Source: a virus (lineage: Duplodnaviria > Caudoviricetes). From it: a stretch of 64,000 bases of DNA. The notes under the pieces are model-generated. The model did no database searches. It worked only from the letters and a program-made list of their open reading frames with translations, and was not told where the DNA came from. Of the stretch, positions 3 to 63,559 are shown one piece after another; position 1 is the first letter of the stretch; each line of letters opens with the position of its first letter. The stretch is taken from positions 2,905 to 66,904 of IMG/VR virus record IMGVR_UViG_3300022173_000225, one strand, 5' to 3'. The translations under genes and the position numbers were made by a program.

Positions 3-788
3 CTGCTGCGTCAGAGCGCGAAGAGCGCGCTTCTGGGCGCTGGGTATGGCCTGGGGTGGGCGAGCTTCGCTGCGCAGCTTCTGGTGGGTTTCCTGGGGGC
101 TCCGCCCGTGCGCTACGACAAAGCGTTCGCCAAGGCGCTGGGGGTCACGCCGGAGTACATCGAGCGCTTCCTGGACTGGGACGAGAACCTCAAGCAGATG
201 GGCGAGATCCAGCACAACTGCACGACGCAGGAACTGCTGGTGCACTGCGTGGCGTCCAAGAAGATCATCGACATCTACCGCGCCACAGCAGCGCCCGTGA
301 AGGGCTTCTGGGACATGTGCACGGAGTTGATCCACAGCGCGCTGGCCGACGGTCAGGAGTACAACCACAAAGGCGCGCTGCTGTTCCGAAAGGAAGAGAT
401 TGTGCTTCCCAACGGCATGTCAATCCGCTATCCTAATCTCCGTCAAGAAGTGGATACGGAAGCCGCAGAGCGCGGCGTGAAGCGCAAGCAGTGGGTGTAT
501 GGCGACGGTGCAGAGACAACGAAGCTCTACGCCGGCAAAGTCACGAACAACGTGACCCAGGCGCTTGCGCGAATCGTGATGACCGACGGGTTGCTGAAGG
601 TCTCCACGAGGATTCCGCTCGTGGGTACGGTGCACGACGAAGGTCTGGGCATCGTGAAGAAGGAAGAGGGCGAGAAGGCTCTGGGCTGGATGATCCGGCG
701 CATGACCGAGGAGCCGAAGTACATGCCGGGGATCCCCCTGGCCGCTGACGGTGGCGTCCATCGTAGATATGGCATGGCGAAAAACTAG
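3..788 (+). CDS. polA: Family A DNA polymerase, C-terminal part (5' truncated by window edge)
   Basis: Frame open from nt 3; motif B RQSAKSALLGAGYG, KLYAGKVTNNVTQALAR, motif C VHDE. Confidence 0.92.
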   Translation: MLRQSAKSALLGAGYGLGWASFAAQLLVGFLGAPPVRYDKAFAKALGVTPEYIERFLDWDENLKQMGEIQHNCTTQELLVHCVASKKIIDIYRATAAPVKGFWDMCTELIHSALADGQEYNHKGALLFRKEEIVLPNGMSIRYPNLRQEVDTEAAERGVKRKQWVYGDGAETTKLYAGKVTNNVTQALARIVMTDGLLKVSTRIPLVGTVHDEGLGIVKKEEGEKALGWMIRRMTEEPKYMPGIPLAADGGVHRRYGMAKN

Positions 789-797
789 GAGAAGCAA

Positions 798-1022
798 ATG
801 GCAAACGGAATCCTCGACGATCCAGACACGACCTTGCTGAAAGCAATCATTGGCACGTTGGTGCACAAGCTAGGTGGCAGTGTGGTGTTCACGCAGGAAG
901 ACTTCGACAACATCGCGGGCTTCGTCATTGGCGAGCGTTGGGTGAGCCCCGACGCGTTTCAACTCGAAGTCGTTCTACCTACAGACAAGCGCCTGCCAAT
1001 GCCCAAGGAGAAAGCACAATGA
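798..1022 (+). CDS. Hypothetical protein (74 aa)
   Basis: RBS AGGAGAAGCAA 787-797; co-oriented in operon. Confidence 0.75.
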   Translation: MANGILDDPDTTLLKAIIGTLVHKLGGSVVFTQEDFDNIAGFVIGERWVSPDAFQLEVVLPTDKRLPMPKEKAQ

Positions 1023-5142: not shown

Positions 5143-5182
5143 TGTCAAAGGTTTTACAGATTCACTTCATCAGGAGCAAGCA

Positions 5183-5599
5183 ATGAGCACCACCGAAACC
5201 CCGACGGTTCCTCTGGACCGTCTGGCCAAAACGTATCGCAAGATCCGCGATGCCAAGGCCGCACTCACCACGGACTACGACACCAAGCTGGCGGCCCTGG
5301 ACAGTCAACTCGATATCGTGGCTGACGCCATGAAGGAGCAGATGAAGGCCGCAGGCGTCACCTCCGTGAAGACCGAGGAAGGCACCGTCATCCTCAGCAA
5401 GCAGACGCGCTACAGCGTGCAGGACTGGGACGCCTTCAAAGCGTTCGTGATCCAGCACGACGCGCTGGACCTCTTCGAGCGCCGCGTTGCGCAGAAGAAC
5501 ACGGAGCAGTTCCTTGAACAGAACCCCGACGTGGCCATCCCCTCGCTCATGTCCGACGCCAAGTACGTCGTGAGCGTTCGCAAACCAGGAGCAAAGTGA
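5183..5599 (+). CDS. Coiled-coil phage protein, Gam/Gp157-like (138 aa)
   Basis: RBS CATCAGGAGCAAGCA; helical N-terminus, DWDAFKAFVIQHDALDLFERRV. Confidence 0.6.
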   Translation: MSTTETPTVPLDRLAKTYRKIRDAKAALTTDYDTKLAALDSQLDIVADAMKEQMKAAGVTSVKTEEGTVILSKQTRYSVQDWDAFKAFVIQHDALDLFERRVAQKNTEQFLEQNPDVAIPSLMSDAKYVVSVRKPGAK

Positions 5600-10745: not shown

Positions 10746-10980
10746 AGTGGGCCAGGGCTTCTTCGTGCCCTGTGTCGACGTGGCCAAGGTCCGCGAAATC
10801 GGCCTCAGGGCAGCCGTAGGCGCTCGGGTGAGGGCAGAGGGTCGCCCCGCCATCGTTCGAGGCGCCTACGGCGTTTGGTTCAGCCGCCTGCCCGACGCTG
10901 TGCGTCGCGGATCTGGCGCGCCAGCGTCAACTCCACCTGCCGCAGACGGTCCACCTGATCCCGCTTCTGATCCGGGGTGA
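10720..10980 (+). CDS. Hypothetical protein, last + strand gene of the replication block
   Basis: MTWPWNRLEVGQGFFVPC...GVWFSR; 3' end overlaps convergent gene. Confidence 0.6.
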   Translation: MTWPWNRLEVGQGFFVPCVDVAKVREIGLRAAVGARVRAEGRPAIVRGAYGVWFSRLPDAVRRGSGAPASTPPAADGPPDPASDPG

Positions 10981-16900: not shown

Positions 16901-18916
16901 CCGGTCCAGGGTGGAGACCATCTGACCGAAAGAGCGGTAGCGTGCGTCCGTGAGCGACTGGCGCCGCGCAGTCTCGGCGGGGAGCTTCATGCCGGCGGCC
17001 TGCTCCAGATCCTTGCTCTTGATCTCGGAAGCGTCGGACTGCTTGGTCTTGGCGTCGGCTTCACGCGTGCGGTTGTCGTCACGCAGCGCGCGCAGTTCCT
17101 GCACGATCTCGGAGACCCGCTCCTTGTTCTGGCTGGCGCGCGCGATGTCCAGATCAGCCATCACCTGCGCTTCACTGCGCGCGGTGCCCGCTGTACCTGA
17201 CCCGACACGGGCCGTTTCCTGCGGCTCAGCGAACAGACGAGGCTGCTGCACGGCCTCACCGATGCCACCGGCGGCCTGCTTGATGCGGTCGATCTCGTAG
17301 TTGAAGTTGCCTTCGTCACGCTGTGCGTCGGCCTGTTCGGTGCTGTCGCGGAACATGTCCAGGGTGGAGTCGTCCCTACCCGTGCGCTGCGCGCGCAGCT
17401 GCTCATCCCGTCGAGCCAGTTCCTCTTTGGTCAGCTGGGTGAACGCGCGTTGGTTGTTGCCCTCAATGTCGATGCGGCGGGTCTTGCCCAAGTCCAGTGA
17501 ACCCTGCACGCCACCCAATGCTTCAAGCTGCTCGGCCAAACGTAGTGCTTTGGTGGTATCTCCGGCTTCATCGGCCTGCTCGATCTGCTTCTGCAGCTTG
17601 GCTGCGCGCCGGGCCGTTGCGTCGGTGTCCGGCAAGTCGAGCGCCTTGAGTTCCTGCTCGGCCAGTGATTTGGCTTGTCGCAGCTGGTCCATGAGGCGCT
17701 CGCGCTCGGTGCGCTCTGCCAGTGTGGCGCCGCCCTGGTTCGACTGGCGGATCTCGTCCATCCGGGCGTCCAGCTGCGGGATGGTGGCGCGCAAGAAGCC
17801 CGCGCGCTGCACAGGGTCCTCGGCTGCCTCAGGTGTCGGCTGCACGTCGGGCGTGTTCTCCATGCCGGGCAGGGAGCCCTGGGCCGCACCCGTGTCGGGC
17901 ATGACGGCGGCCGGCGCGTTGCGTTCGGCTTCGATCAACCCGGCTTCACGTTGCTGCGCGGCTTGCTGCTCGGCAGCGCGCTTCTTGGCTTCCTCTTCGT
18001 CGGCCATGCCCTGGCTCTTGCGGGCAGCCGCGCCGCGCTCGACAAACGTGCCAGCCGGCGACAACGTGCCTGCCATGATGGCGCCGCCGAAGAAGCTCTG
18101 CAGGTACTCGCCGCGGGCCTCGGGGTCTACAGTCGACAGGCCCGCCTGCGCGCGCTCCAGAACCTGCTGCATCGTCTCGGTGAGACCTTCGGCCGTCATG
18201 GCCTTGCCCGTGCGCTGCGCGTACTCCATCGCGATCTGCTTGGCGGTCTGCGCGGCCATCTCCTTGGCCGTCTCTGCAGTCACCTTCTGGCCGGCGGCTC
18301 CGAACAGCTTGCCGATGCCGGGGATGAAGCGAAAGCCGATGACGTCCAGTGCTGCCTGAGGCACAGCAGCCATGGCGGCGTTGGCGCCACTCGTGTCCTC
18401 GAGCGACGTCTTGTTGGCCTGCATGCTCCGGTCAAGGTTGGAGCCGAAGAACTGCGCGCCAGAGGCCAGACCTGCAAGGCCTGCACCGGCCAACGCCGGG
18501 GCACCGAACGCTGCTGCACCACCCGCCAGTGCCAGCGGGGCCACCATGTAGGGGGCCGAGCCACCCAGCAGTTCCTTGACGTTCTGCACCGGCGCTTCGA
18601 GGAAAGACTCCTCGGTGGGCTTGAAGATCTGCTGCGCGCGCTGCTGGCGCTCGGTGTTGAACTGCTCCGCCGCCTGCGTGTCCATGAGCCCGGCTTTGCC
18701 TGCGGCAAGGGCGCCCTGGCCGGCGAGGCGCTGCGCACCTGCCTTGAGTGCGGGCATGAAGCCGCCCTGCGGTTGCTCGCCGGGAGCCGGCGCTGCAGGT
18801 TCGATGCCGAAGGCCGTGGGGTACTCGCGCTGGGCGCGCTCCCACGCATCAGCTGGCTGCTCCCCCTCGCGTACGGTTACGAAAGATCCATCCGGCAGGG
18901 GGAGGTACTGGGCCAT
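10880..18916 (-). CDS. Large polyvalent/ejected virion protein (~2678 aa) with HExxH peptidase motif and LPD38-like C-terminus
   Basis: Start MAQYLPLPDG; long coiled-coil; VMHEFVHAAT (13841-13855); PFFNAQVQG, KVPIPFELG; last gene of late operon. Confidence 0.75.
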   Translation of the reverse strand: MAQYLPLPDGSFVTVREGEQPADAWERAQREYPTAFGIEPAAPAPGEQPQGGFMPALKAGAQRLAGQGALAAGKAGLMDTQAAEQFNTERQQRAQQIFKPTEESFLEAPVQNVKELLGGSAPYMVAPLALAGGAAAFGAPALAGAGLAGLASGAQFFGSNLDRSMQANKTSLEDTSGANAAMAAVPQAALDVIGFRFIPGIGKLFGAAGQKVTAETAKEMAAQTAKQIAMEYAQRTGKAMTAEGLTETMQQVLERAQAGLSTVDPEARGEYLQSFFGGAIMAGTLSPAGTFVERGAAARKSQGMADEEEAKKRAAEQQAAQQREAGLIEAERNAPAAVMPDTGAAQGSLPGMENTPDVQPTPEAAEDPVQRAGFLRATIPQLDARMDEIRQSNQGGATLAERTERERLMDQLRQAKSLAEQELKALDLPDTDATARRAAKLQKQIEQADEAGDTTKALRLAEQLEALGGVQGSLDLGKTRRIDIEGNNQRAFTQLTKEELARRDEQLRAQRTGRDDSTLDMFRDSTEQADAQRDEGNFNYEIDRIKQAAGGIGEAVQQPRLFAEPQETARVGSGTAGTARSEAQVMADLDIARASQNKERVSEIVQELRALRDDNRTREADAKTKQSDASEIKSKDLEQAAGMKLPAETARRQSLTDARYRSFGQMVSTLDRFNRGRADGAALKQAEQGVIDNLVREIDSITGSPMSTMERQSVMAEARDLLADLKNRFGDTRDEVNLGTRKEPQMEPVQRRGGDFRTDLPGEGAGPTGMGLENFETQDKGSRTFGNRYAAAQSILEGLDEIRNRRAGTQETGRGTDRTDSTRGQDERLATAQAQARGTAAEPLLQQVAESKVKTPALVDNAVEAAMRAQRGQDITEQQRAITDELGRLEQGKRSETEGGKTAVQPDMFGGTGVIFDSWTEFDDWLGSDALEAIKMAQGQTRETLSRAIKMVAPLQKKAADLQAQVEKLLVRRDALRALAGEEDAKSQKDVDDATAAVMEAQDVLDFATIEYSEALTAAQEKLQAAFDEDAVIAGQIADNLKQLNQAGQMQEREFTALRKAQTQMIDLSRKVADAKQKLAKYTPTLFSSSDPISRPKLAEFNRLEKQVADLEAQLVTASTRARAAHPSGLARADADGRALATFQQQARALSQQRAQQARRIGGLTSVRNRAQARLDAALAQLEVDPEFQSLRDNKSRADQILALAKDKRRGAEAGIDAVNAEATTLDREALRVGEPVPTLRQQAIERIREARGKLPGGKLETQLDRERKDGDRRRAEQETLSARQEGPGTRRESVSFEPRRLDQESLDEAGARMAVLEDILGRVPMNEEQRTQFDEAAVEYKARSEALEKKAQARLENVEGKLAAQRKRIEMLQRAQAEYDAADVDSPQRAKAQDRVARLMDQLQKQGQKLSKAWGIRREAIVSQAERLAQADTRSQSKRNADAASVESLTEGQTKRRTSSPAMRETRQTGGFRTGNAETAEQRAGSQRQRIVESQRPKERDTPVSRAEQMVANLEAKRIKDEAAAANKEAAALKKGTPPKRRKQVDDAQTVGQVLIRALEEKPRGPKSKVQSAIDDMEFDTDGYDDALLREDNAFYADRQTHDLSEEAAEAAFDGRTLDLLDDIAANGATPTLRAVAAAVRPFLLRTRTRTKDGLTIGGRRAEGALFPQRNEVVLDSMAMSQETVMHEFVHAATIRAISGDIPLNAEQQQALGDLQALYNRIKDTPEFSKEYARKDLLEFTAEIMTNPTVREKLDKYTAGSVPLLTRLYNGFLRLLGVNVPSTSTKAMVDTMRLFAPSRSFEYRHQGVPSIMRGVFPGTKPAFNADVPQDLQALATGTVGKNPSVKDKILANVAGFRAQFVDRFDPYEDLMRKGVAKGMITDLQAAQYSYFMRFGEQRNQFVEQAATNGVPQLRKTAEGDFVIETPEGQHPNLMKIAQALTKANVGNEQATEELFTTYLAVLRGEQVGFDKLNFDRPVTAEQAAEVKAFVAADPARKEAFESARQMYREYNNGLLDFLVQTGAMDKPQATALKKGDYVPYYRQDPSGVVNLIIAGETPVRIGNIKDQPYLKELVGGNDKILPFFTGAMQNTSMLIDMALRNKQTMELSNMLQTLGVGKIRKNTGPDNGTSVNFKVNGEQVHLNIEQAVEEWGVPAELLVKGLEGIKTTIPAALRAMQIPANLLRTMITRAPAYAIRQIIREPINAWLVSGGNFTPVVSSVKELSKIVQGKSAAADGLERAGAVSSNVITGDQQDQARILRDVAQGKSAWHKVMMAADKFAMQGDTATRAVLYDKFRKQGMTHMQSTLAALESMNFARKGLSPTMQMMSMLVPFFNAQVQGLDVIYRAAKGQTTFEKKLDVQRKLIQRGAMMMAGTLAYTAMMQDDDAYKNATPQERAQNWFLPLPGLDQPLKVPIPFELGFAFKALPEVMLNTAFGDTQTKDAAKAMGALAYNSLPIGMPQAIKPAIEVMANYSFYTGDSIEGRREQTVQKGERFRDNTTELAKILGKAEVLSPVQIDYLLRGYTGGLGLTLVGLSNFALRMANPSEALADGATKTANQLPLIGALFQPTDGRGVIDEAYKDIESWQQATQTYKRMIEQGRRADAQKFAQDFSMQIALNATGGAFRQQMGELAQVRRAILANKELTPDQKRDQVDRLRQVELTLARQIRDAQRRAGG

Positions 18917-18977
18917 AGCTGTGTGTGCTCCGTAGAAGCTGAAAAGCGCCGTCAAGCGGCGCTGTGATTATGCCCGG

Positions 18978-30401: not shown

Positions 30402-30524
30402 TCAGCCCTTCTTCTTGGCAGGCGGCTTCTTGCCGAACGGGGGCGCCATCTTGCCGGCCGGCTTCTTCTTGTCGCCGGGCTTGCCCTTCAGCATGAAGGC
30501 AGGGAGTTCTTTTTTCGTGGCCAT
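30402..30524 (-). CDS. Tiny Lys/Pro-rich protein (40 aa)
   Basis: RBS AAAGGA; MATKKELPAFMLKGKPGDKKKP. Confidence 0.6.
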   Translation of the reverse strand: MATKKELPAFMLKGKPGDKKKPAGKMAPPFGKKPPAKKKG

Positions 30525-43511: not shown

Positions 43512-44006
43512 TCAGTGAGTGAAGGCCGCGCGGCCTTGTTCCGGGTATTGTGCAGTGTCGAAACGGTTGTTCTTGCGGCGGTTTTCGGCCGCTGTCAGTA
43601 CCTGCATGTTCCACCAGACGTGCAAACCACACACTTTTTTGCCGCGCAGGGGGACGATGTGGTCCACGTGGTGCTCAACCCCAGTGCTCTGCGTCAGTTC
43701 CGCCGCTGCAGAGTAGAGGCGCAGCACCTCTTTCTGCATGTCGACCTCTCTCCAGGCCGCTGCTGCTTGGCGTGAAACCACTTTCCTGAAGCGTGTGTAC
43801 TCCGCGACGCGGTGTGGGTTCTCTTTCTGCCACTCCGCCGTAGTCGTACGCGATTTTTCGCTGTTTGCAAGGCGCCACAGGCGTGTTCGTTCCGCTGCTG
43901 CCGCGTTGTACGCCGGATCTTGGCGGCGCTTTGCCCCGTGACGGCGCTCTTTTTCTAGGTACTTCTCTGTCTGGCGGTACTTGGCCTGTCGTTCAGCTTG
44001 GCTCAT
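43512..44006 (-). CDS. HNH homing endonuclease (164 aa)
   Basis: HHVDHIVPLRGKKVCGLHVWWNMQ...N; same family as 36690-37256. Confidence 0.88.
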   Translation of the reverse strand: MSQAERQAKYRQTEKYLEKERRHGAKRRQDPAYNAAAAERTRLWRLANSEKSRTTTAEWQKENPHRVAEYTRFRKVVSRQAAAAWREVDMQKEVLRLYSAAAELTQSTGVEHHVDHIVPLRGKKVCGLHVWWNMQVLTAAENRRKNNRFDTAQYPEQGRAAFTH

Positions 44007-44014
44007 TTGAGGTC

Positions 44015-45616
44015 CTAGTAATAGGCCGCGACGCGCGGCGGCGCGGGCTCATTATCGCCGTCGTCCTCGTCATCCGACAAGGTGATGAAGCCGCCGCGGC
44101 GGAACCGCTCCCAGGCCATCACAGTGCAGTCCACCGGGTCGTCGAAGTCGCCATTGGGGAAATCCGCGCACACCTCGATCAGTTCACGGGCCCACGGCGT
44201 GTCCGGCACCCACACCACGCCGTCTTCCAAAATTGGCGTCACGGCGTTGGTGCGCGCGTATTTGTCGTTGGACACGCCCACCTTGCCGCGGGACGGGCTG
44301 ACCTCCATGACGAACAGGCCCTGGGCCCGCATCTCCTGGATCAGCGGCGCGCCGGCCGCCTTCTTCTCGATGATCAGGTCGTCGGGCTGCCAGCGGTCGT
44401 AGAACTCCCGGGCCTTCTTCTTGAGCTCGGGGAACTCGGGGCGCCCCTTCCAGTAGTCCAGCAGGATAATGGCGTGGCGGTGGCGGTATTCGTCGAAGAA
44501 CACGCCCCAGGTGGTGCAGGCGCTGTAGTCGTTGCGGGTCTTCTGCTCGTGGGCCGTGTCCCAGGTCTGGATGATGAAGCTGCAGTCGGGCGGGTCTTCC
44601 TTGAGCCAGATGTTCCAGTGCTCGCGCTTGAGCAGTGCGGCGGAGTCGCTGGTGGGCTCCTGCATGTACTGCGCCGCCCAGAACGCGGGGCGCATGCCGG
44701 CCTTCTTGGCCAAAAGCTCGGCCAGGGGCCACTGCTCGGGCCAGAGCGAGACCATCTGCATCTTGCCGTCGCGCTCGACCTCCATCACCGCGGGGAAGCG
44801 CACCTCGTGCCATGGCAGCGCCCCGTCGGCCTTCTTGTCCTTGGACCACTGGATCGCCTTGGCGATCGGATCCTGCTTTCCCCAACGTGTGCCGATCATG
44901 ATGATCCGCCCGCCGGGCATCAAGCGCTGCAGGGGGCCCACCTGCATGTAGCTCCAGGCCGTCTCGAACGCCACCGCCGGATTCCCGTACAGCACCGACT
45001 GCTCGGAGACCAAGTCGTCGGCCACCAGCAAGTTGGCGCCCTTGCCTGCCGCGTTGCCGCCCACACCCAGCGCGAGGTACACGCCGCCCTGCACGGTGGT
45101 CCAGTTGCCGGCCGCGCTCTTGTCCTTGGACACCTGCACCGAGCGGTCGAAGATCTCCTGGTACTCGGGGCTGTCGATCAAGTCACGCACCTTCTTGCCG
45201 AAGCTCTCGGAAAGCTCGGCCGTGTGGGTGACCATCATGATCTGGTGCGTGGGGTTGTGCCCCAGATACCACGCCACGTAGAGGAACGCGATCGACTCGG
45301 ACTTGCCGAACCGTGGGGGCATGGAGACCGTCAGGCGCAGCGCGTGGGGCGGGATCTCCTCGGTGTTGCTCCAGACGGCTGCCATGTCGTGCAGCAGCGG
45401 GCGCAGGTGCCGGTGGTGCGGCCCTTCCTTGAACCCCGGGTAAACCCGGTGGCAGAACACCAGGAAGTCCTCCCGCGCGCGCCGGCGGGCGTTCTTGACG
45501 TCAAAGGCCTCGAGGTCCTCAAGCAGCGCAGCCTTCTCCAGCGCTGGCATCTCCGGGATGCGCGCTATCAGCAGCTGGATCTGCTCGGGGCTGAGGTGCT
45601 CCAGGCGGGTGGTCAC
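44015..45616 (-). CDS. terL: Terminase large subunit (533 aa)
   Basis: Walker A MPPRFGKS, Walker B LLVADD, nuclease QTWDTA and DDPVD. Confidence 0.95.
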   Translation of the reverse strand: MTTRLEHLSPEQIQLLIARIPEMPALEKAALLEDLEAFDVKNARRRAREDFLVFCHRVYPGFKEGPHHRHLRPLLHDMAAVWSNTEEIPPHALRLTVSMPPRFGKSESIAFLYVAWYLGHNPTHQIMMVTHTAELSESFGKKVRDLIDSPEYQEIFDRSVQVSKDKSAAGNWTTVQGGVYLALGVGGNAAGKGANLLVADDLVSEQSVLYGNPAVAFETAWSYMQVGPLQRLMPGGRIIMIGTRWGKQDPIAKAIQWSKDKKADGALPWHEVRFPAVMEVERDGKMQMVSLWPEQWPLAELLAKKAGMRPAFWAAQYMQEPTSDSAALLKREHWNIWLKEDPPDCSFIIQTWDTAHEQKTRNDYSACTTWGVFFDEYRHRHAIILLDYWKGRPEFPELKKKAREFYDRWQPDDLIIEKKAAGAPLIQEMRAQGLFVMEVSPSRGKVGVSNDKYARTNAVTPILEDGVVWVPDTPWARELIEVCADFPNGDFDDPVDCTVMAWERFRRGGFITLSDDEDDGDNEPAPPRVAAYY

Positions 45617-46236
45617 GTGGGGTCTCTGCGCACCAGGGCGCCATCCTCGCCGGCCAGGGGGACCCCCGGGGCACCGGAGGCGTCTGCGACAACGGTCGCG
45701 TCCAGCAGGCGTTTCAAGCGCTCGGCCACCTTGGTATTGAGCTCTTCCTCGTTGTGCTCGACCTTGGTCGTGACCTCCACCTTGGTGGTGAACAGGGCCA
45801 CCTCGGTCACCTCGCCCAGCATCTTCATGGCCTTCAGGCGCACCGTGGGCGTCGGGTGCTCCATGTCCTCGAGCAACTTGGCCACGATCTTGCCGCGGAT
45901 GCTCTTGGCGTGCTCGATAAACTCCCAGTCGTAGGCCGTGAGGCTGGCCACGAGGTGCTGCACTGCCTCTGGCGTCTTGATGGTAGTGAGCGCCAACTTC
46001 TTCTGATCGTCCTCGGGCTCGGTGATCAGCGTGACGAAGGCTTCCCGCGCGTCGCGGGTCTGGATGGCGTGGTCGATCTCGTCGTCGGACGGCACGCCGA
46101 AGGCTGCGAAGGGGTTGTCCTTGCCAGCACTCTTGTGCATGGCGTTCAGCACCTGGGCAGAGGAGGCCTCATCCAGCTGCAGTAGCTCGACGTCGGCTTC
46201 GTTCTCGATCTGGATGCTGAGCAGGTGGTCGAACAT
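45613..46236 (-). CDS. terS: Probable terminase small subunit (207 aa)
   Basis: First gene of late operon, overlaps terL start; helical. Confidence 0.55.
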   Translation of the reverse strand: MFDHLLSIQIENEADVELLQLDEASSAQVLNAMHKSAGKDNPFAAFGVPSDDEIDHAIQTRDAREAFVTLITEPEDDQKKLALTTIKTPEAVQHLVASLTAYDWEFIEHAKSIRGKIVAKLLEDMEHPTPTVRLKAMKMLGEVTEVALFTTKVEVTTKVEHNEEELNTKVAERLKRLLDATVVADASGAPGVPLAGEDGALVRRDPT

Positions 46237-46265
46237 GTTGGCGCTGGGGTTTCAGCGATGCGGGG

Positions 46266-46294
46266 TTGCCCCCGGGGTGAGCGCAGTGTATCCT
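46266..46294 (+). promoter_or_regulatory. Sigma70-like promoter for candidate sRNA
   Basis: TTGCCC-17 nt-TATCCT. Confidence 0.6.
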
Positions 46295-46314
46295 CACTTC
46301 CGAGGTCGGTGCAA
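46285..46314 (-). promoter_or_regulatory. Candidate promoter of late operon
   Basis: TTGCAC-18 nt-TACACT upstream of terS; same -35 as 5115 promoter. Confidence 0.5.
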
Positions 46315-46393
46315 CGCTTTGGCGTTGTCCTTGCTTCTCCTGATGGTTGGAAACGACCTTGAGCCCCCAAGTGCAAACCTGGGGGCTTTTTTT
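46301..46393 (+). ncRNA. Candidate trans-acting sRNA with anti-RBS loop
   Basis: Promoter upstream; stems 46302-08/46354-60 and 46311-28; loop TTGCTTCTCCTGATG complementary to early-gene RBS motif; terminator. Confidence 0.65.
46362..46393 (+). terminator. Intrinsic terminator
   Basis: AGCCCCCA...TGGGGGC followed by 7 T. Confidence 0.8.
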
Positions 46394-46575
46394 CGTCTGG
46401 AGGGGTTGTTTGGCGCGGTGGCAGGTGCTGATCTCCTGCTTTGATGCCAGTCTCATGCCGGTATGCCTACCAGCCATTTAGTCGGCGGCTTGCTCGGTTA
46501 GCCGACTTCCCGTTGAGCGCATCAGCCTGCGCATTCACCGCAGCCGCCAGTGTACCCCACGCGCGGTGGCACTTG

Positions 46576-46685
46576 GCTACTTTGACACGGGGTTTTCGTC
46601 GAATTTTTGGTGGGCCCCGGGGGTAGGGCGATCGGCGAAAACGGGGCGAATTCTGTATTTGGAGTACTTTTACGCTACTTTGACA
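46576..46685. repeat. 12-bp direct repeat GCTACTTTGACA (46576-87, 46674-85)
   Basis: Exact match in non-coding early/late junction. Confidence 0.7.
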
Positions 46686-46860
46686 TGGTTGCGCGGCGTT
46701 GGTGTGAAACAGTGTTACTACACGCCGCCACACACATCACAGATATTGGTCCCCCACCCACCCGTACCCTCGCCGCACCCGCAAAACACCGCACACCGCA
46801 ACGACAGAAAAGCTCTATTCATACAATATAGGTGTCAGTTGGATAGGCCATCTGACATAC

Positions 46861-46891
46861 CAAACCGTGAGCGATGCTCACACATCAGGAG
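46861..46891 (+). promoter_or_regulatory. Early cassette 1: palindrome B plus CATCAGGAG
   Basis: GTGAGC-GAT-GCTCAC 46867-81; CATCAGGAG 46883-91. Confidence 0.85.
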
Positions 46892-46898
46892 TTACACC

Positions 46899-47303
46899 AT
46901 GTCTTCCATCATCAACACCGCAGTCATCAACACCCTCAAGGCCGCCGCATCCTTTCAGTTGCGTGTCGCTGATCTTCGTGCTGCGCTGCCCCGCGCTACT
47001 TTGCAGGATCGTGATGCGCTTGTCATTGCGTTGCGCCCCGGCGTGGCCAAGTTCTACGGCATCGAGTGCGCTGAGCACGGTGCTACTGGCAAGTTCGTGT
47101 GCGACGACGACAAGGTCAGCATGGCCGCGCGTACCGCACTGAGCAAGCTGGTGCGTGCTGTGCAAGGCCCTGTGGCGCACGAGACGGTCGTGACCAAGGT
47201 TCGGGTCAAGGCCGCTGAGAAAAGCGCGTATGACGCGTTCTATGCAGCGTGCGGTGGCGACACCAAGCGCATGGCTGCTGTCATCAAGGCAATGAAGGCT
47301 TGA
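46899..47303 (+). CDS. Early hypothetical protein (134 aa)
   Basis: RBS CATCAGGAG; first + strand gene of early block. Confidence 0.8.
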   Translation: MSSIINTAVINTLKAAASFQLRVADLRAALPRATLQDRDALVIALRPGVAKFYGIECAEHGATGKFVCDDDKVSMAARTALSKLVRAVQGPVAHETVVTKVRVKAAEKSAYDAFYAACGGDTKRMAAVIKAMKA

Positions 47304-50118: not shown

Positions 50119-50222
50119 TCCGACCGGTGTCAAAGCAAACCGGCCGCTCTCGAAGAGAACGTGAGCATCGCTCACACCCGGCGCCACAGCGGACCTGTGG
50201 CAGTTCAATCAGGAGAAAGCAA
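50119..50222 (+). promoter_or_regulatory. Early cassette 4 (order A-B-C-D)
   Basis: A 50119-32; B GTGAGC-ATC-GCTCAC 50161-75; hairpin GCCACAG-CGGAC-CTGTGGC 50183-201; ATCAGGAGAAAGCAA. Confidence 0.9.
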
Positions 50223-51124
50223 TGAGTCATTTCACAGTCATGGTCATCGGAGCAACCGACGTCGCAGCAGCGCTGCAGCCCTTCCACGAGTACGAGTGCA
50301 CGGGCATCAAGGACCAGTACGTGATCTGGGTGGATGAGACCGAGGAGGTGCGCAAGGAGTGGTTGGGGCTCAGTGCCGATGACAAGGCGGAGTACAAGAA
50401 CCTTGTCCACTTCGCTGAAAGTTGGTTCGGCTACGAGGAGAGCGAGGACAAGCCGGGCACCTACGGCCACTGGACGAACCCGAACCGCAAGTGGGACTGG
50501 TACCAGATCGGCGGTCGTTGGTCGGGCTTCTTGAAGCTCAAGGCCGGCGTCAAGGGCAAGCTCGGCTCGCGCAGCCTGCTGGACAGCAGCCCCGATGACA
50601 GGCGTGGACGTGCAGACCAAGCGCGCAAGGGCGACATCGACGTGGCGGGCATGCGCGACGAAGCGGGTGAGAAAGCAGGTGCCAAGTGGGACATCATCAA
50701 CCCGGTGATCGCCCCGCACGAGATGACCTACATGGACTGGGCACTGGCGCAGGAAATGTCGATGCGTGACGGCAAGGTGGACTACGAGCTCGCACGCAAG
50801 ACGTACCACGGGCAAGACCTGATGATGGCAGTGCAGGCAGTCGCACAGGACAAGAGCAACCCGCACCGTGAGATGTTCGTGTGGATCGACGATGTGCAGC
50901 AGTACCTGCGCCCGCGGGATGAGTTCGTGCAGATCGCGCGCAACGGGGCCATCGGCACCTTCGCTGTGTTGAAAGATGGCGAGTGGGCCGAGCGCGGTGA
51001 GATGGGTTGGTTCGGCATGGTCAGCAACGAGGGCGACAAGAACGCCTGGGACCAGCAGTTCAATGACATGTTCGACGCGCTGCCCGACGACACGCTGATC
51101 ACAATTTGTGATTGTCACATATAG
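50222..51124 (+). CDS. Conserved phage protein (300 aa)
   Basis: MSHFTVMVIG, NPNRKWDWYQIGGRWSG, GEWAERGEMGWFG, DCHI end. Confidence 0.85.
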   Translation: MSHFTVMVIGATDVAAALQPFHEYECTGIKDQYVIWVDETEEVRKEWLGLSADDKAEYKNLVHFAESWFGYEESEDKPGTYGHWTNPNRKWDWYQIGGRWSGFLKLKAGVKGKLGSRSLLDSSPDDRRGRADQARKGDIDVAGMRDEAGEKAGAKWDIINPVIAPHEMTYMDWALAQEMSMRDGKVDYELARKTYHGQDLMMAVQAVAQDKSNPHREMFVWIDDVQQYLRPRDEFVQIARNGAIGTFAVLKDGEWAERGEMGWFGMVSNEGDKNAWDQQFNDMFDALPDDTLITICDCHI

Positions 51125-51180
51125 TCTTGTCATATCTGACGAGTTGATGTACGCTGCATTTCTTTTTGAAAGGAGAAGCA

Positions 51181-51696
51181 ATGCGGCACGAATGGCGCCC
51201 TGTTCCAGGGTACGAAGGCATCTACGAAGTCAGACAAGGCAAAGACGGGGGGCGTGTGCGAAGAGTGCAGCCCCTTGCACGCACGCGCGTTGGTAGAGAA
51301 CTGTTTGGGCTCGACGCCAACGGCTACCCGCGAGCCGTGCTCACAGGCGCTGATGGCAGCGTCAAGTACACGCGAATGCACGTACTCATCATGCGGGCCT
51401 TCGGCCCCCCACAACCCTGCCCGCTGCACGTAGTGCTGCACAAAGACGACGTCAAGAAGCACAACGTCATAGGCAATCTTGTGTGGGGTACAAAGTCGCA
51501 AAACCTGCTCGACTCGTGGGCCAACAAGCGACGCAAGGCCTGCACACCAGCGGGCGCAGCACACCCGAGGTCCAAGCTCACGCCAGCACAGGCAAAACGC
51601 ATCCGCCTCAGCAAGAAGCCTTTAAGCGAAATGGCCCTTGAAATGGGTGTGTCCAAGCAAACAGTGTGGCGAGTGCGCACACGCAAGAGCTATTAA
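51181..51696 (+). CDS. NUMOD4-HNH homing endonuclease (171 aa)
   Basis: WRPVPGYEGIYEV, VLHKDDVKKHNVIGNLVWGTKSQN. Confidence 0.88.
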   Translation: MRHEWRPVPGYEGIYEVRQGKDGGRVRRVQPLARTRVGRELFGLDANGYPRAVLTGADGSVKYTRMHVLIMRAFGPPQPCPLHVVLHKDDVKKHNVIGNLVWGTKSQNLLDSWANKRRKACTPAGAAHPRSKLTPAQAKRIRLSKKPLSEMALEMGVSKQTVWRVRTRKSY

Positions 51697-51697
51697 A

Positions 51698-51774
51698 TCC
51701 GACCGGTGTCGGCCGGCGCAGCAGCGGTCCTGCTGCAAAACCGTGAGCATCGCTCACACATCAGGAGAAAGCAA
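51698..51774 (+). promoter_or_regulatory. Early cassette 5 (order A-C-B-D)
   Basis: A 51698-711; hairpin 51718-36; B 51743-57; CATCAGGAGAAAGCAA 51759-74. Confidence 0.9.
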
Positions 51775-52127
51775 TGGGTCAATACTGGATGCCAGTGAAT
51801 CTGGACAAGAAAGAATACCTGCACCCCCACGACATGGGTGACGGCGCCAAGTTGTGGGAGCAGGCGTTCAGCGCGGGTGGGGTGGCCTCCGCATTGGTGT
51901 TGTTGCTCGCACCACTACCTATCAGGCGCGGTGGTGGGGATCCGAGCGACTTGACGCACGTTGGCCGGTGGGCAGGGGACCGCATCGTGTTCGTCGGGGA
52001 CTACAGCGAGAAGGACGACTGCAAGGTGCGCAGCTTCGGCACGCTGTACAAGCGCGTGCGTGAGAACAAGGGGTACACCAACATCTCGGATCTGGCCAAG
52101 GCCATGGTCGATAGCAACAACAGCTGA
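51774..52127 (+). CDS. Conserved early protein (117 aa)
   Basis: MGQYWMPVNLDKKEYL, GRWAGDRIVFVGDY. Confidence 0.85.
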   Translation: MGQYWMPVNLDKKEYLHPHDMGDGAKLWEQAFSAGGVASALVLLLAPLPIRRGGGDPSDLTHVGRWAGDRIVFVGDYSEKDDCKVRSFGTLYKRVRENKGYTNISDLAKAMVDSNNS

Positions 52128-52890: not shown

Positions 52891-52961
52891 TCCAACCGGT
52901 GTCAAAAACGTGAGCGTTGCTCACACCCGGCGCAGCGGCGGTCCCGCTGCATATCAGGAGA
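52891..52961 (+). promoter_or_regulatory. Early cassette 6 (order A-B-C-D)
   Basis: TCCAACCGGTGTCA; GTGAGC-GTT-GCTCAC 52910-24; GCAGCGG-CGGTC-CCGCTGC 52932-50; ATCAGGAG. Confidence 0.9.
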
Positions 52962-52967
52962 TTCCAA

Positions 52968-53450
52968 ATGGAAAAGCAAGCAATCCTCCAGAACCTGCGC
53001 GATGCGCACGACATTCTGTCCAAGGTCGAAGAGCCCATCTTTAAGCTGAGCACCTTCAAGAAAGAACTCAGCTGCGGCACCATCGCATGCGCTGCAGGGT
53101 GGTTGGCTATGTCCGAGCGCTTTGCGCCGATCATGAAGCTGGTGCCTTTCGGAGTACAGACCCCCAACGCTCACCACTTCTTCAACTTGCGCCCCGCAGA
53201 CTGGGTCGAGGGTACTGTGGAAGACAGCGCGTACTACTTCGGGTGGCTTGACGGACACTTCGGCCCGCACGCATTCGACATGCTCTTCTGCGAAAGGGGC
53301 GGCGGCATGAAAGACCTGGACCACCCTATGGCGGAGCGAGATGAAGACGACGAAGACGAGTGCGTATTCCCGGACAGCGTCACCGACAAGGACCTTGCGC
53401 TCTGGCGCATCAGGCAGCAGATCGCCGCGATCGAAGGGAGTGCGGAATGA
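52968..53450 (+). CDS. Early hypothetical protein (160 aa)
   Basis: RBS ATCAGGAG; CGTIACAAGWL. Confidence 0.8.
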   Translation: MEKQAILQNLRDAHDILSKVEEPIFKLSTFKKELSCGTIACAAGWLAMSERFAPIMKLVPFGVQTPNAHHFFNLRPADWVEGTVEDSAYYFGWLDGHFGPHAFDMLFCERGGGMKDLDHPMAERDEDDEDECVFPDSVTDKDLALWRIRQQIAAIEGSAE

Positions 53451-54654: not shown

Positions 54655-54729
54655 TCCGACCGGTGTCAAAAATGTGAGCGCTGCTCACACAACCCGCGCA
54701 GCAGGGGTCCTGCTGCAAATCATCAGGAG
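54655..54729 (+). promoter_or_regulatory. Early cassette 7 (order A-B-C-D)
   Basis: A 54655-68; GTGAGC-GCT-GCTCAC 54674-88; hairpin 54698-716; CATCAGGAG 54721-29. Confidence 0.9.
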
Positions 54730-54735
54730 TAAATC

Positions 54736-55146
54736 ATGGGTACACGTTCAATCACCACCATCATCGACAACCAATGGGGCAAGCCCTCCAAGGTCTGCAC
54801 CATGTACGCACAGTTCGACGGCTACCCCAGTGGCCACGGTCAGGCACTCTTCGACTTCCTTGTGAAGATGAAGCCCTGCAACGGCCTGGGCGGCAAGGCT
54901 CCGCAGGGAATGGAGTGGGCCAACGGCGCAGGGTGTCTGGCTGCACAGATGATCAAGCACTTCAAGGACGGCCCCGGCGGGCATTACATGACTGCGCCGC
55001 GCGTCACGCTCGACGGTGAGGACTACGGCTACGAGGTCACGTTCGAGCAGAACATGACGCTCACTGTTGTGGTCAAGAGTTACAAGGGCAAGGTCTTCAG
55101 TGGCAGCCTGCACGACTTCGGTATCTTTTGCGCAAAGGACAAGTGA
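54736..55146 (+). CDS. Conserved early protein (136 aa)
   Basis: MGTRSIT, YAQFDGYPSGHG, NGAGCLAAQMI. Confidence 0.85.
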   Translation: MGTRSITTIIDNQWGKPSKVCTMYAQFDGYPSGHGQALFDFLVKMKPCNGLGGKAPQGMEWANGAGCLAAQMIKHFKDGPGGHYMTAPRVTLDGEDYGYEVTFEQNMTLTVVVKSYKGKVFSGSLHDFGIFCAKDK

Positions 55147-56877: not shown

Positions 56878-56899
56878 CGCCAACATCAGGAGAATCAAC

Positions 56900-57424
56900 A
56901 TGATCGACATCAACACCATCATCCAGCAAGCACTCGAGAAAGCCATCACCGAGGCAGTCGACAAGAAGTTTGACGAAATCGAGCTTCGCATCGAAGGCAT
57001 CGAGCAGGCGCTGCGTCACAAGAGCGACCTGGGCCCGCTGCGCGCTCAGTTTGCCGAGGACATCCAGCAGCTTGAGTACCGCATCAACAACGTGAACGAC
57101 TCCTTCAACGCAGGGCAGCGCATGCTGCTGAACTTCGAGCGGGACATGGGCACCGTCAAGGAAACCCTCAGCGGCATGCAGGAACGCTTCGCTTTGAAGG
57201 ACGTGGTCAATGCGGACATCGAGGGCATCAACAGAGTGCTCGACGAGCGCGCCAGTGTGGCTTCTGTGGAGTGTCTGGAAGAAGAAATGAATCGCATGCA
57301 GCGTCGGCTGGCTGCGGCCGAACGCGACAGCCGCGCCCCCGAACTGGACAGCCAGGAAGTGGCGGACGTCATCGCCGACCTGTTCAGCGACGGCACATTG
57401 ACCATCACCATCGACAAAGTGTGA
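56900..57424 (+). CDS. Coiled-coil early protein (174 aa)
   Basis: RBS CATCAGGAGAA; heptad-rich. Confidence 0.8.
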   Translation: MIDINTIIQQALEKAITEAVDKKFDEIELRIEGIEQALRHKSDLGPLRAQFAEDIQQLEYRINNVNDSFNAGQRMLLNFERDMGTVKETLSGMQERFALKDVVNADIEGINRVLDERASVASVECLEEEMNRMQRRLAAAERDSRAPELDSQEVADVIADLFSDGTLTITIDKV

Positions 57425-57491
57425 GCACCGCTCACGTTTGAGTCCGGCGCCGCAGCGGTTCTGCGGCATTTTTGTTTCTACACATCAGGAG
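57421..57491 (+). promoter_or_regulatory. Early cassette 8 (order B-C-D)
   Basis: GTGAGC-ACC-GCTCAC 57421-35; GCCGCAG-CGGTT-CTGCGGC 57449-67; CATCAGGAG 57483-91. Confidence 0.85.
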
Positions 57492-57498
57492 TTTCAAC

Positions 57499-57804
57499 AT
57501 GAACACGACCTTCAACCAAGCCATCGACAACGCCGTGCACAACGCGCCCACCAGTGCACTGACCAACAAGCTCACCCCCGAGCAAGCCGTGGACCGGCTG
57601 GCCTACATCAAGAGCGCCATCGCGTCGCTCAAGGAAGAGGAGACCGCGTGCAAGGACATCCTCATCACGCACAACCAGCGCGCCTACGAGAGCGACTTCT
57701 ACCGCGCCACGGTGGCTGAGGTGGCCGGCGGCACCAAGGTGGACTGGCAGGCCCTGGCCATGAGCATGAAGCCCAGCAAGCAGAAGATCGTGGCCTACAC
57801 CTAA
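57499..57804 (+). CDS. Early protein (101 aa), possibly truncated by a TAA; frame continues to 57855
   Basis: RBS CATCAGGAG; YRATVAE, VDWQALA; 16 open codons after the stop. Confidence 0.75.
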   Translation: MNTTFNQAIDNAVHNAPTSALTNKLTPEQAVDRLAYIKSAIASLKEEETACKDILITHNQRAYESDFYRATVAEVAGGTKVDWQALAMSMKPSKQKIVAYT

Positions 57805-57866
57805 AGCACGGCCGGCTACTACCGCATCGACGTTCGTGCGAAGAAAACCAGCTGAAGGAGAAGCAC

Positions 57867-58058
57867 ATGGAACACTCTCACTACTACTTCACGCCGCGCG
57901 AGATGGACTCGCGGTCAGGCAAGGGCCCCGGTACGCACGACCATGACAGCGCGCTGTGTGGCTATGGCAGCTTCCACTTCAAGCGCACGAAGGTGAAGGC
58001 CGACGTCACTTGCCCCAACTGTCGCGCCCGTCTCGGGCTGCCGGAGAAGACATCATGA
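57867..58058 (+). CDS. Small Cys/His protein (63 aa)
   Basis: RBS AGGAGAAGCA; LCG...VTCPNC. Confidence 0.75.
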   Translation: MEHSHYYFTPREMDSRSGKGPGTHDHDSALCGYGSFHFKRTKVKADVTCPNCRARLGLPEKTS

Positions 58059-58860: not shown

Positions 58861-59346
58861 ATGTTGACCGCCGAGCAGCTACGAGAACAGCTTTCGTACA
58901 ACAAGACAACAGGTCTTTTCAGGTACCGCCGGCAGGTGGGGCGCATGAAAAAAGGAGCCGTTGCCGGCACCCTGGGCACGCACGGGTACGTGCAGATTGG
59001 CGTTGCGGGGAAGCTGTACAAAGCATCTAGGCTGGCGTGGCTGTATGTGACAGGGGCGTGGCCGACGGAGATCGTGGACCACAAGAACCGAAGGCGCTCT
59101 GATGATCGGTGGAAGAACTTGCGGCTGCTGTCGAAAGCAGAAAACCAGCAGAACTGCACGCCGCTCCGAAAGAACAACAAGAGCGGTGTCAAGGGGGTGT
59201 CGTGGTGCAGCCGTCGCCAGCGCTGGCAAGCACACATCCAATACGAGAACCGACAGAAGAGCATCGGTGTTTTCAAAACCATCCGTGAAGCAGCCGCCGC
59301 ATACCGTGCGGCTGCACAACAGCTTCATACACATAGGAGTAAGTAA
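58861..59346 (+). CDS. HNH-AP2 homing endonuclease (161 aa)
   Basis: LSYNKTTGLF, VDHKNRRRSDDRWKNLRL, NNKSGVKGVSW, WQAHI (AP2). Confidence 0.92.
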   Translation: MLTAEQLREQLSYNKTTGLFRYRRQVGRMKKGAVAGTLGTHGYVQIGVAGKLYKASRLAWLYVTGAWPTEIVDHKNRRRSDDRWKNLRLLSKAENQQNCTPLRKNNKSGVKGVSWCSRRQRWQAHIQYENRQKSIGVFKTIREAAAAYRAAAQQLHTHRSK

Positions 59347-60525: not shown

Positions 60526-60568
60526 GTAAAACATCGGGCATACTGTCAACTTCATCAGGAGAAATCAA

Positions 60569-61546
60569 ATGTCACATGCGCTCACACAACGTGCCAACGG
60601 CATGACCGAATTTGCGTACCTCAAGAGCGACGGCCTGCCGTGGCACAACCTGGGGCAACCCATGGAAGACAAAGCCAGCCTCGAAGAGTGGCGCGTCAAG
60701 GCCGGCATGGACTGGCGCATCAAGCGCGCCAAGGTCCGCTACCCCACCAGCGCCGACACCGTGAACGACGCCACGCAGTACGTCGAGGTACCTGACAAGC
60801 ACGTGCTCTTCCGCTCGGACAACGCCCACCCCCTGGGCATCGTCTCGGACAAGTACAAGGTGGTGCAGCCCGGCGAGGTGCTGGACTTCTTCCGCGACAT
60901 CGTGCACGTCGGTGGTCTGGAGTTGAGTGCAGCGGGCACGATCTATTCGGGCGCCCGTTTCTGGGCCACGGCCAAGATCGGCGAGGCGAGCCCTGCGTCC
61001 CTCAAGGACAAGGTGGGCGGCTACCTGCTGCTCTCCACCAGCGCCGACGGCTCGCTGGCCACCGAGGTGCGCCGCACCACCATCCGCGTCGTCTGCCGCA
61101 ACACGCTGGCCATGGCGCACGGTGAGGGCGCAGCGTCCGTGAAGATCTCGCACCGCTCGGTGTTCAAGCCCGAGGAGGTCAAGGATTTCATGGCGATCAA
61201 CAGCGCAGCCTTCGACGGCTTCATGCACACGCTCACCGATCTGGCCAACAAGGACATCACGCTGGAGCACGCCGAGTATCTGGCGGTGTCCATCATCGGC
61301 GGCGAGGAAGCCAAGGTGCGCACGAGCGCAGGCTTCGCCAAGGTCATGGACTTGTTCACCGCGTCTGGCGTGGGTGCAGGGGCGGACGGCGTCATCGGCA
61401 CGGCCTACGGGCTCTTGCAGGGGTTTACAGAATACTCCGATCACTGGGCACGCGCCCGAAGCGCTGAGAACCGGTTTGCCTCCAGCCAATGGGGCCCGGG
61501 CGCACAACTCAAGCAGAGGGCTTTGGAGACTTTGGTCGCCCTGTGA
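60569..61546 (+). CDS. DUF932 (phage/plasmid-like, TIGR03299-type) protein (325 aa)
   Basis: PWHNLG, YKVVQP, LLLSTSADGS, TTIRVVCRNTL. Confidence 0.88.
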   Translation: MSHALTQRANGMTEFAYLKSDGLPWHNLGQPMEDKASLEEWRVKAGMDWRIKRAKVRYPTSADTVNDATQYVEVPDKHVLFRSDNAHPLGIVSDKYKVVQPGEVLDFFRDIVHVGGLELSAAGTIYSGARFWATAKIGEASPASLKDKVGGYLLLSTSADGSLATEVRRTTIRVVCRNTLAMAHGEGAASVKISHRSVFKPEEVKDFMAINSAAFDGFMHTLTDLANKDITLEHAEYLAVSIIGGEEAKVRTSAGFAKVMDLFTASGVGAGADGVIGTAYGLLQGFTEYSDHWARARSAENRFASSQWGPGAQLKQRALETLVAL

Positions 61547-62923: not shown

Positions 62924-62963
62924 GGCAGCGGGCCTGTATCAACCGCTGCCAAATCATCAGGAG
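62924..62963 (+). promoter_or_regulatory. Variant hairpin C plus CATCAGGAG
   Basis: GGCAGCGG-11 nt-CCGCTGCC then CATCAGGAG 62955-63. Confidence 0.6.
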
Positions 62964-62968
62964 TTTTT

Positions 62969-63559
62969 ATGAAAAAGAGTCTCATCGCAATCGCACTGTT
63001 CATCGCAGCATCCGCGCACGCCACTGTGTTCGGAGACACCACCAACAACCACGGGGGTCGAGGTGGCGACGGGGGTGATGGCGGCCACGCCGCAGCCTCT
63101 GCAGGCGCAGCTGCGGCAGCAAGCGCCAAAGCGCAGGCAACGGGGGTCGGTGTTGGTATCGCGACCGGTGTCAACAAAAGCCAGCAGAGCACCAGCGTGG
63201 TGGTCGAGGCCGAGCAGAACTTCCGCACCGCAGCCACGGCGTACGCCGCACCCCTGGCAGCCAGCAACGGCACCTGCATGGGCTCGAGCAGCGTGGGCGC
63301 CCAGGGCACCTTCGGCCTGTCTTTCGGTACCACCTGGACCGATGACAGCTGCGACATGCGCTACGACGCCGAGAGCCTGCGCGCGCTGGGCCAGCCCGTG
63401 GCGGCCCTGGCCCGTCTGTGCCAGAAGCCCGAGATCGCAGCCGCCATGTCCTCGGCCGGCACGCCGTGCCCGAGCAAACCGGCGCCCACTGCAGGTGTGC
63501 AAAAGCCCTGGATGACCGACCCGCTGGTCCGCGCACGTGAAGGTCTGGCCCCACTGTGA
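62969..63559 (+). CDS. Secreted/periplasmic protein (196 aa)
   Basis: Signal peptide ending AHA; GGRGGDGGDGG; TCMGSSS, SCD, RLCQ. Confidence 0.8.
   Translation: MKKSLIAIALFIAASAHATVFGDTTNNHGGRGGDGGDGGHAAASAGAAAAASAKAQATGVGVGIATGVNKSQQSTSVVVEAEQNFRTAATAYAAPLAASNGTCMGSSSVGAQGTFGLSFGTTWTDDSCDMRYDAESLRALGQPVAALARLCQKPEIAAAMSSAGTPCPSKPAPTAGVQKPWMTDPLVRAREGLAPL

Follow-up and report, generated by a model that had tools for sequence, protein, structure and literature searches.

A predicted small RNA beside the late operon of a phage is complementary to the translation start sites of its early genes

The DNA analysed here, called the window, is a stretch of 64,000 nt that corresponds to bases 2905-66904 of the phage record IMGVR_UViG_3300022173_000225 (Caudoviricetes) in IMG/VR, which is 66,904 bp long and rated complete. 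The + strand (early) gene block runs from 46.9 kb to the end of the window and resumes at 1-10.7 kb; among its products are a DNA polymerase, an exonuclease, an SNF2 helicase, a DUF927 primase-helicase, a DUF932 protein, several HNH endonucleases and many small proteins of unknown function. The - strand (late) block extends from 46236 down to 10880 and begins with the gene of a 207-aa small-terminase-like protein (terS), followed by those for the large terminase (TerL), the portal and structural proteins. The TerL gene lies downstream of terS and overlaps it by 4 nt, and the N-terminus of the small-terminase-like protein (MFD...) is kept in more than 40 loci. Early and late genes diverge from a junction at 46237-46880, and the candidate small RNA (sRNA) gene described here lies within this junction, directly upstream of the first late gene.

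With its own DNA polymerase, exonuclease, helicase and primase the phage looks virulent. No integrase or repressor gene was found among the window proteins tested, and 185,579 species genomes contained no prophage copy or relative. A blastn search of the junction against 50,697 phage records gave no match. No cultured relative with matching sequence was found; the best TerL matches were at most 43% identical, and two phages among them, 023Pt_psg01 and DSL-LC04, lack such an sRNA unit ahead of their terminase genes. The window encodes at least three HNH endonucleases and one protein like endonuclease VII (84-785, 1319-2164, 51181-51693, 58861-59343 and 43512-44006), and one HNH gene adjoins a DNA-polymerase fragment, which suggests that the polymerase gene was split by a homing endonuclease. 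In the virion module, a 2691-aa protein (10880-18955, - strand) has LPD38 as its sole Pfam-recognisable domain.

The elements of the candidate sRNA gene and the start sites that its transcript is predicted to pair with are listed in Table 1.

Table 1. Predicted elements of the sRNA locus and predicted target start sites in the window
Feature	Position	Strand	Remark
-35 of sRNA promoter, TTGCCC	46266..46271	+	TTG 17 (+/-1) nt before -10 kept in ~21/25 non-redundant relatives
Shared -10 region	46285..46294	.	TATCCT 46289-94 (+, sRNA); TACACT 46290-46285 (-, late operon)
Predicted sRNA, ~92 nt	46302..46393	+	5' end placed from the -10; 3' end at the U-run
Hairpin H1	46302..46337	+	basal stem 46302-06/46333-37; inner stem 46311-17/46322-28
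-35 of putative late promoter, TTGCAC	46309..46314	-	inside H1 as GUGCAA
CU-rich box, complementary to early translation-start regions	46331..46345	+	open seed 46338-46344
Hairpin H2	46345..46358	+	fold; two pairing-compatible changes in L002
Intrinsic terminator, GC stem + U7	46361..46393	+	fold, sequence
Predicted late-operon 5' leader	46237..46278	-	no Shine-Dalgarno; GCAA-capped hairpin
Small-terminase-like gene, first of late operon	45613..46236	-	constant neighbour of the sRNA
Predicted target start site	787..800	+	11 nt contiguous
Predicted target start site	5168..5185	+	duplex -24.6 kcal/mol
Predicted target, first early gene	46883..46901	+	box match
Predicted target	50208..50224	+	duplex -22.3 kcal/mol
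Predicted target, HNH endonuclease gene	51171..51183	+	box match
Best predicted target	51759..51776	+	duplex -26.5 kcal/mol
Predicted target	52953..52970	+	box match
Predicted target	54721..54738	+	box match
Predicted target	56884..56902	+	box match
Predicted target	57483..57501	+	box match
Predicted target	57856..57869	+	box match
Predicted target, DUF932 gene	60553..60571	+	box match
Predicted target	62955..62971	+	box match

The original prediction, made from the letters of the window, had placed a promoter, an inner hairpin (46312-27), a CU stretch (46331-45) and a stem followed by T7 (to 46393) at this locus, and all of these coordinates check against the sequence. It had also drawn an outer stem with the CU-rich box exposed in the loop inside it. 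This stem appears in the centroid structure only; both the minimum-energy fold and the family consensus have in its stead a pairing of the 5' part of the box (46333-37) with 46302-06, which closes H1. UCCUGAU (46338-44) is open between H1 and H2 with an unpaired probability of 0.8-1.0. From the folding models, the seed is better described as a single-stranded linker between two hairpins than as a loop in an outer stem. The 98-nt stretch folds with -43.1 kcal/mol (z = -4.16). Across 31 family members the CU core is predicted to be unpaired (median p = 0.95), with the exception of relative L072, in which it is predicted to be paired.

The sRNA promoter was recognised as a consensus match only, with a spacer of 17 nt between its hexamers; among relatives the spacer between TTG and a -10 of the form TAnnnT varies while the TTG stays. 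A simple promoter scan with a 9-of-12 threshold reported no promoter at the locus, and its loop limit missed the main terminator of the sRNA. Judged by their hexamers, the putative sRNA and late promoters are both moderate consensus matches only.

The two divergent promoters would share one -10 region, their -10 hexamers overlapping by 2 bp. In the window this region is a degenerate copy of a family palindrome, AGTGTACACT, which occurs once per genome in relatives G006 and G007. Most relatives keep a TTGC 17-18 nt away from TACACT. The late -35 lies inside H1, which may explain why GCAA in H1 is at least 90% conserved in our family alignment A4. The first late gene has no Shine-Dalgarno sequence in the window and in L002, and the loop of the late-leader hairpin coincides with the sRNA promoter's -35 on the opposite strand. 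In L002, the stem of this leader carries one compensatory change from G-C to A-U.

Judged from the -10 hexamers, the predicted sRNA and late start sites are ~23 bp apart. In bidirectional promoters, divergent start sites are commonly 10, 18 or 23 bp apart and the -10 is symmetric; strong activation in one direction can repress the other (PMC12825309). With such a layout, the sRNA could be made while the late promoter is off, before late firing, and as it accumulates it could then restrain early translation. It could instead be made together with the late transcripts. Further elements lie in the same junction. A direct repeat, GCTACTTTGACA, at 46576-46587 and 46673-46685 holds a TTGACA -35-like hexamer and may mark early junction promoters. 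A run of CCCCCACCCCC / GGGGGTGGGGG type is located beside an A/T-rich TATAAAA-like box (window 46745-46770). Such a run is conserved in the junction of most relatives, and in G007, G008 and numerous loci it follows directly on the sRNA terminator; G007 has it in another orientation than the window, and it may be a promoter or origin element.

Using TerL as a query we obtained 73 related IMG/VR loci; the small terminase as query for such loci gave no matches. Within 330 nt upstream of the terS homologue, all of the 52 TerL-related loci with at least that much upstream sequence carried a CU box followed by a terminator, in every case on the strand of the CU box, and the unit was divergent from terS in 50 of the 52. 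The common anatomy is TTG, 17 nt, TACACT (part of the palindrome AGTGTACACT), H1, CU box, H2, a GC hairpin and U6-9. Scanning IMG/VR with a pattern made of the palindrome, 15-45 nt and CTTCTCCT matched at least 120 further contigs; among the 80 that we fetched, 75 had the terminator and 77 a divergent terS homologue. The family is large (>100 contigs) and compact (~130 bp including the promoter).

In L046, L047 and L059 the whole cassette is inverted and now lies on the terS strand, with a promoter TTGACA-18-TACTCT and a terminator that ends 5 nt before the terS ATG. The order promoter, hairpin, CU box, terminator is retained on one strand, which means that the CU-box strand is always the strand of promoter and terminator. 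The sRNA of these inverted relatives is the terminated leader of the late operon. Late-operon transcription must there read through the sRNA terminator, a layout like PR'-tR' of lambda that implies an antiterminator. A different arrangement was seen in L072 (2800-3590) and L066, where two extra genes on the terS strand separate the early region from the sRNA terminator; one of them encodes a small protein with a signal-peptide-like N-terminus, and the first uses the early-type start site CTGGAGAAG.

A covariance model, R1, was built from 66 sequences. The window sRNA, itself a member of these 66 sequences, scored 43.3 bits. Of 13 genomes searched with R1, 8 contained the locus, each as a single copy; among the related loci there were 36 matches, each in the place and on the strand expected. 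A further weak match (30406-30513; 22 bits, E = 0.15) sits in - strand coding sequence and was discarded as chance. A search of the window junction and of the loci of eight relatives against Rfam returned nothing at gathering score; the best sub-threshold matches were bacterial sRNAs with CU-rich motifs. We conclude that the sRNA gene is very probably real. On the strength of these database comparisons, in which no Rfam family or cultured relative matched, the family appears to be previously undescribed.

The two hairpins were examined for covariation in A4, an alignment of 66 sequences. In H1 and H2 together, 88.1% of cells were paired, compared with 75.0 +/- 0.9 in shuffles, and 95 cells had changes on both sides, compared with 36.9; none of 500 shuffles reached either observed value. 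Slid controls were 39-64% paired. In H1, 93.7% of the family cells were paired and both-side changes were found at 4 of 6 pairs; in H2 they were found at 5 of 5. The same columns read on the opposite strand were only 74.1% paired, and the + strand pairs comprised 124 G.U cells versus 23 A.C cells. The stronger pairing and the excess of G.U over A.C indicate that the RNA is the + strand, which also folds better than the opposite strand (Wilcoxon p = 0.0017). A pairwise substitution test of strandedness gave 17 early-strand-only and 15 late-strand-only changes, an outcome that varies with the reference sequence. RNAalifold on a MAFFT alignment of seven divergent members recovered the terminator alone.

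These data bear on the possibility that the locus makes no functional RNA and that its conservation reflects a late-promoter architecture at the DNA level, with sites for a late regulator and an insulating terminator. The palindrome and the late TTGC -35 inside the element would fit such an arrangement, as would the conservation of GCAA whatever its structural context. However, the covarying helices show a strong G.U asymmetry, which points to an RNA of one strand, the inverted cassette retains the order expected at the RNA level, and a protein-binding site is not expected to track the sequences of early start sites (see below). We therefore regard a purely DNA-level element as distinctly unlikely and return to the + strand RNA.

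The motif CATCAGGAG occurs nine times in the window where 0.49 copies are expected, a count that none of 100 shuffles reached. Duplication contributes to the copy number, since the shared early motif is partly contained in a repeated intergenic cassette. On the + strand there are eight copies, each followed after 5-8 nt by the ATG of an ORF; these are ribosome sites of early genes. The ninth is on the - strand (46337-45) and is the complement of the candidate RNA. Longer matches had been reported from the letters at 787, 5168, 50208, 51171, 51759, 56884 and 60553, and we found them as described. Start-like sites sharing at least 9 nt with the RNA complement numbered 15 on the + strand and 1 on the late strand. 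Those late ribosome sites that the original prediction had checked were said to lack the CATC extension of the early motif, and indeed late start sites do not match the box (at most one per late strand). Predicted duplexes in the window reached -26.5 kcal/mol, and the median duplex energy was -17.1 kcal/mol for early genes versus -13.25 kcal/mol for late genes (p = 1.9e-4).

A second motif is found near these sites. The perfect palindrome GTGAGC-N3-GCTCAC occurs at eight sites between 46867 and 57435, just upstream of many early start sites and sometimes 1 nt before CATCAGGAG; L002 has the same element, and L072 a slightly altered form. It resembles the operator of a dimeric regulator of early promoters. 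We also considered these palindromes as hairpin promoters of the N4 type, a reading set aside because the central loop bases are not consistently purines.

The - strand copy of the motif could in principle be a ribosome site itself, serving a short upstream reading frame or a small terminase subunit with an extended N-terminus. In L043, L069, G007 and L064 an ATG does follow at ribosome-site spacing, and it is in frame with terS in L043 and L069. No start codon follows the motif in the window, L002, L056, L049 or L016, however, and frame A of the window meets a first stop after 12 codons and another 15 nt upstream of the terS ATG. L002, whose TerL is 90% identical, retains the exact motif but differs from the window by a 2-nt deletion and a 1-nt insertion before the terS ATG; neither indel is a multiple of three. 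Across relatives, the ORFs after the motif show no conserved length, frame or peptide, and the CU box sits upstream of the predicted late -35. That the - strand copy does not look like a translation start, as originally proposed from its missing start codon, is thus borne out by frameshifting indels and by the lack of a conserved upstream ORF, and we consider a translation start at this site extremely unlikely.

If the box of the sRNA pairs with early start sites, the two may be expected to have changed together. The window and G001 are of the ATCAGGAGAAGCAAG type, and G001 has seven copies of ATCAGGAG on the early strand and one at the sRNA locus. G002 has lost the motif of the window and G001; ACTGGAGAAGC occurs there in the sRNA complement and at seven early start sites. 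In G006, GGAGAAAGACA is found in the sRNA complement and early start sites alike, and in G007, 16 early sites match over up to 16 nt including the ATG. Early matches of at least 9 nt numbered 15 in G000, 13 in G001, 7 in G002, 6 in G006, 16 in G007 and 4 in G003, with lineage-specific flanks, and the late strand gave at most one match per genome. The partial loci L003, L050 and L055 showed further lineage-specific flanks. When one genome per lineage was used, matches of each sRNA to its own genome summed to 51, and none of 133,496 derangements reached this value.

The larger set of loci gave a similar picture. In 75 pattern-derived loci, which as relatives are not independent samples and for which gene calls are crude, matches of at least 10 nt numbered 89 on the early side (248 kb) and 1 in late genes (385 kb). 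The dinucleotide before CAAGGAG followed the own sRNA in 42 cases compared with 29.5 under permutation (p = 0.0034), a test weakened by the relatedness of the loci. Relatives that keep the ribosome-site motif and lose the complementary stretch had been named in the original prediction as the pattern that would speak against it; we saw the opposite, a joint change of both in at least five lineages. G004, G005/G010, G008 and G009 retain the anti-Shine-Dalgarno core and show no clear excess of early start-site matches.

The four lineages without excess matches to their own early genes are what would be seen if the sRNA were a general anti-Shine-Dalgarno RNA, directed at host mRNAs (shut-off) or at any strong ribosome site. 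The family-invariant part of the box, a generic CUCC core, is in line with this, as are the bacterial CU-motif sRNAs among the best sub-threshold Rfam matches. On the other hand, the flanks beyond the Shine-Dalgarno core vary by lineage and follow the start sites of the own early genes, and late genes have AGGAG-type sites too, yet do not match the box. The CATC extension, moreover, is not complementary to the tail of 16S rRNA. Taken together, these points make a general anti-Shine-Dalgarno function unlikely.

The RNA may also be real and act through a protein such as Hfq, S1 or a phage translational regulator, or be the product of a leader or attenuator. A pyrimidine-rich open stretch beside a U-tailed terminator is a typical protein-binding surface, and in the L047-type relatives the RNA is a terminated late-operon leader. 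Neither mode of action would account for box flanks that follow the lineage or for matches of 11-16 nt, and we judge this explanation clearly improbable.

Finally, pairing could serve the exclusion of superinfecting relatives, with the sRNA conferring immunity as c4 does in P1/P7; an incoming genome with the same start-site signature would then have its early translation blocked. Box and start site form lineage-specific pairs that resemble immunity specificities, and c4 acts at a ribosome site (PMC12197685). Against this stand the lack of an integrase or repressor among the proteins tested, the virulent appearance of the phage and the empty search for prophage copies in the species genomes; an immunity RNA is very unlikely here.

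On balance we lean towards the view that the sRNA represses the translation of early genes by pairing. An ncRNA of ~92 nt would be transcribed from the + (early) strand (46302-46393) by a host-type RNA polymerase, starting from a promoter whose -10 region is shared with the promoter of the divergent late operon (terminase, portal, head). It would fold into two hairpins, H1 and H2, joined by a short open CU-rich linker and followed by an intrinsic terminator. In vivo, the linker and its flanks would pair with the Shine-Dalgarno sequence and spacer of 13-15 early-gene mRNAs, in some relatives extending over the start codon. Pairing would occlude the 30S binding site and reduce translation, and probably mRNA stability, of the early class; late mRNAs would escape because they lack the extended motif. 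Such repression may set in around the early-to-late switch. More tentatively, and with somewhat less than even confidence, we suggest that the lineage-specific extended start site is an 'address' read by a co-evolving sRNA from the bidirectional late-promoter locus, which would amount to an RNA-only switch-off of early genes, an RNA counterpart of T4 RegB/RegA, and possibly to a determinant of cross-exclusion between related phages.

To our knowledge, phage temporal control is known almost entirely from proteins, namely sigma factors, antiterminators, nucleases and translational repressors, and the phage RNAs described so far, as far as we know, have a single neighbouring target, affect the host or regulate few genes. 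In T4, the RegB endoribonuclease and the RegA translational repressor are proteins that inactivate early mRNAs via their ribosome-binding regions. Our proposal resembles RegB and RegA in its outcome only, the inactivation of a class of early mRNAs (for the context of RegB see PMC9409239); the recogniser would be an RNA acting by pairing.

The lambda PR'-6S RNA-tR' unit and the Stx-phage sRNA StxS are short terminated transcripts that head a late operon. The lambda layout is matched only by the inverted L046, L047 and L059, and no antiterminator as in lambda-type late control was identified. The window RNA and those of 50 of 52 relatives are transcribed away from the late operon and so cannot be its leader, unlike the product of PR'-6S-tR'. 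The putative divergent promoters on one pseudo-symmetric -10 would be like the bidirectional promoters of Warman, Grainger et al. (PMC12825309), with start sites that are predicted here; unlike in the described cases, their products would be a regulatory RNA and a phage late operon.

The sRNA shares with LhrC, RsaE/RoxS and RF02278 an open pyrimidine-rich seed for several Shine-Dalgarno regions, a terminator hairpin and a U tail. Those RNAs are chromosomal and serve host regulons, whereas the present one is phage-encoded and its flanks follow the early start sites of the phage itself. The model of RF02278, a toxic sRNA of Betaproteobacteria, scored 17.7 bits against a gathering score of 50.

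The closest parallel among phage RNAs in the part of the literature consulted is the c4 antisense RNA of P1 and P7 (Rfam RF01695; Citron and Schuster 1990, cited in PMC12197685). As portrayed there, c4 too is small and structured, and with its exposed stretches it pairs around the ribosome-binding site of a phage mRNA and blocks translation, as predicted here; its specificity is likewise set by few bases and differs between related phages. By the same account, c4 and its one target operon, icd-ant, are transcribed together in the immunity region of a temperate phage, and c4 is cut out of this transcript. In contrast, the sRNA has its own promoter and terminator beside the packaging genes of an apparently virulent phage, and its 13-15 predicted targets are dispersed. 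With E values of up to 10 allowed, the RF01695 covariance model still gave no match to the sRNA. The phage sRNAs named in a 2025 review are c4, sar, OOP, PreS, VpdS and others, and a multi-target RNA directed at the early start sites of a virulent phage itself is absent from it (PMC12197685). If the proposal is true, a conserved, regulon-wide sRNA against start sites adds an RNA layer to the early-to-late programme. With short target leaders and a compact sRNA, the idea is testable in synthetic reporters even though the family has no cultured member, and the family offers a natural set of orthogonal sRNA/leader pairs.
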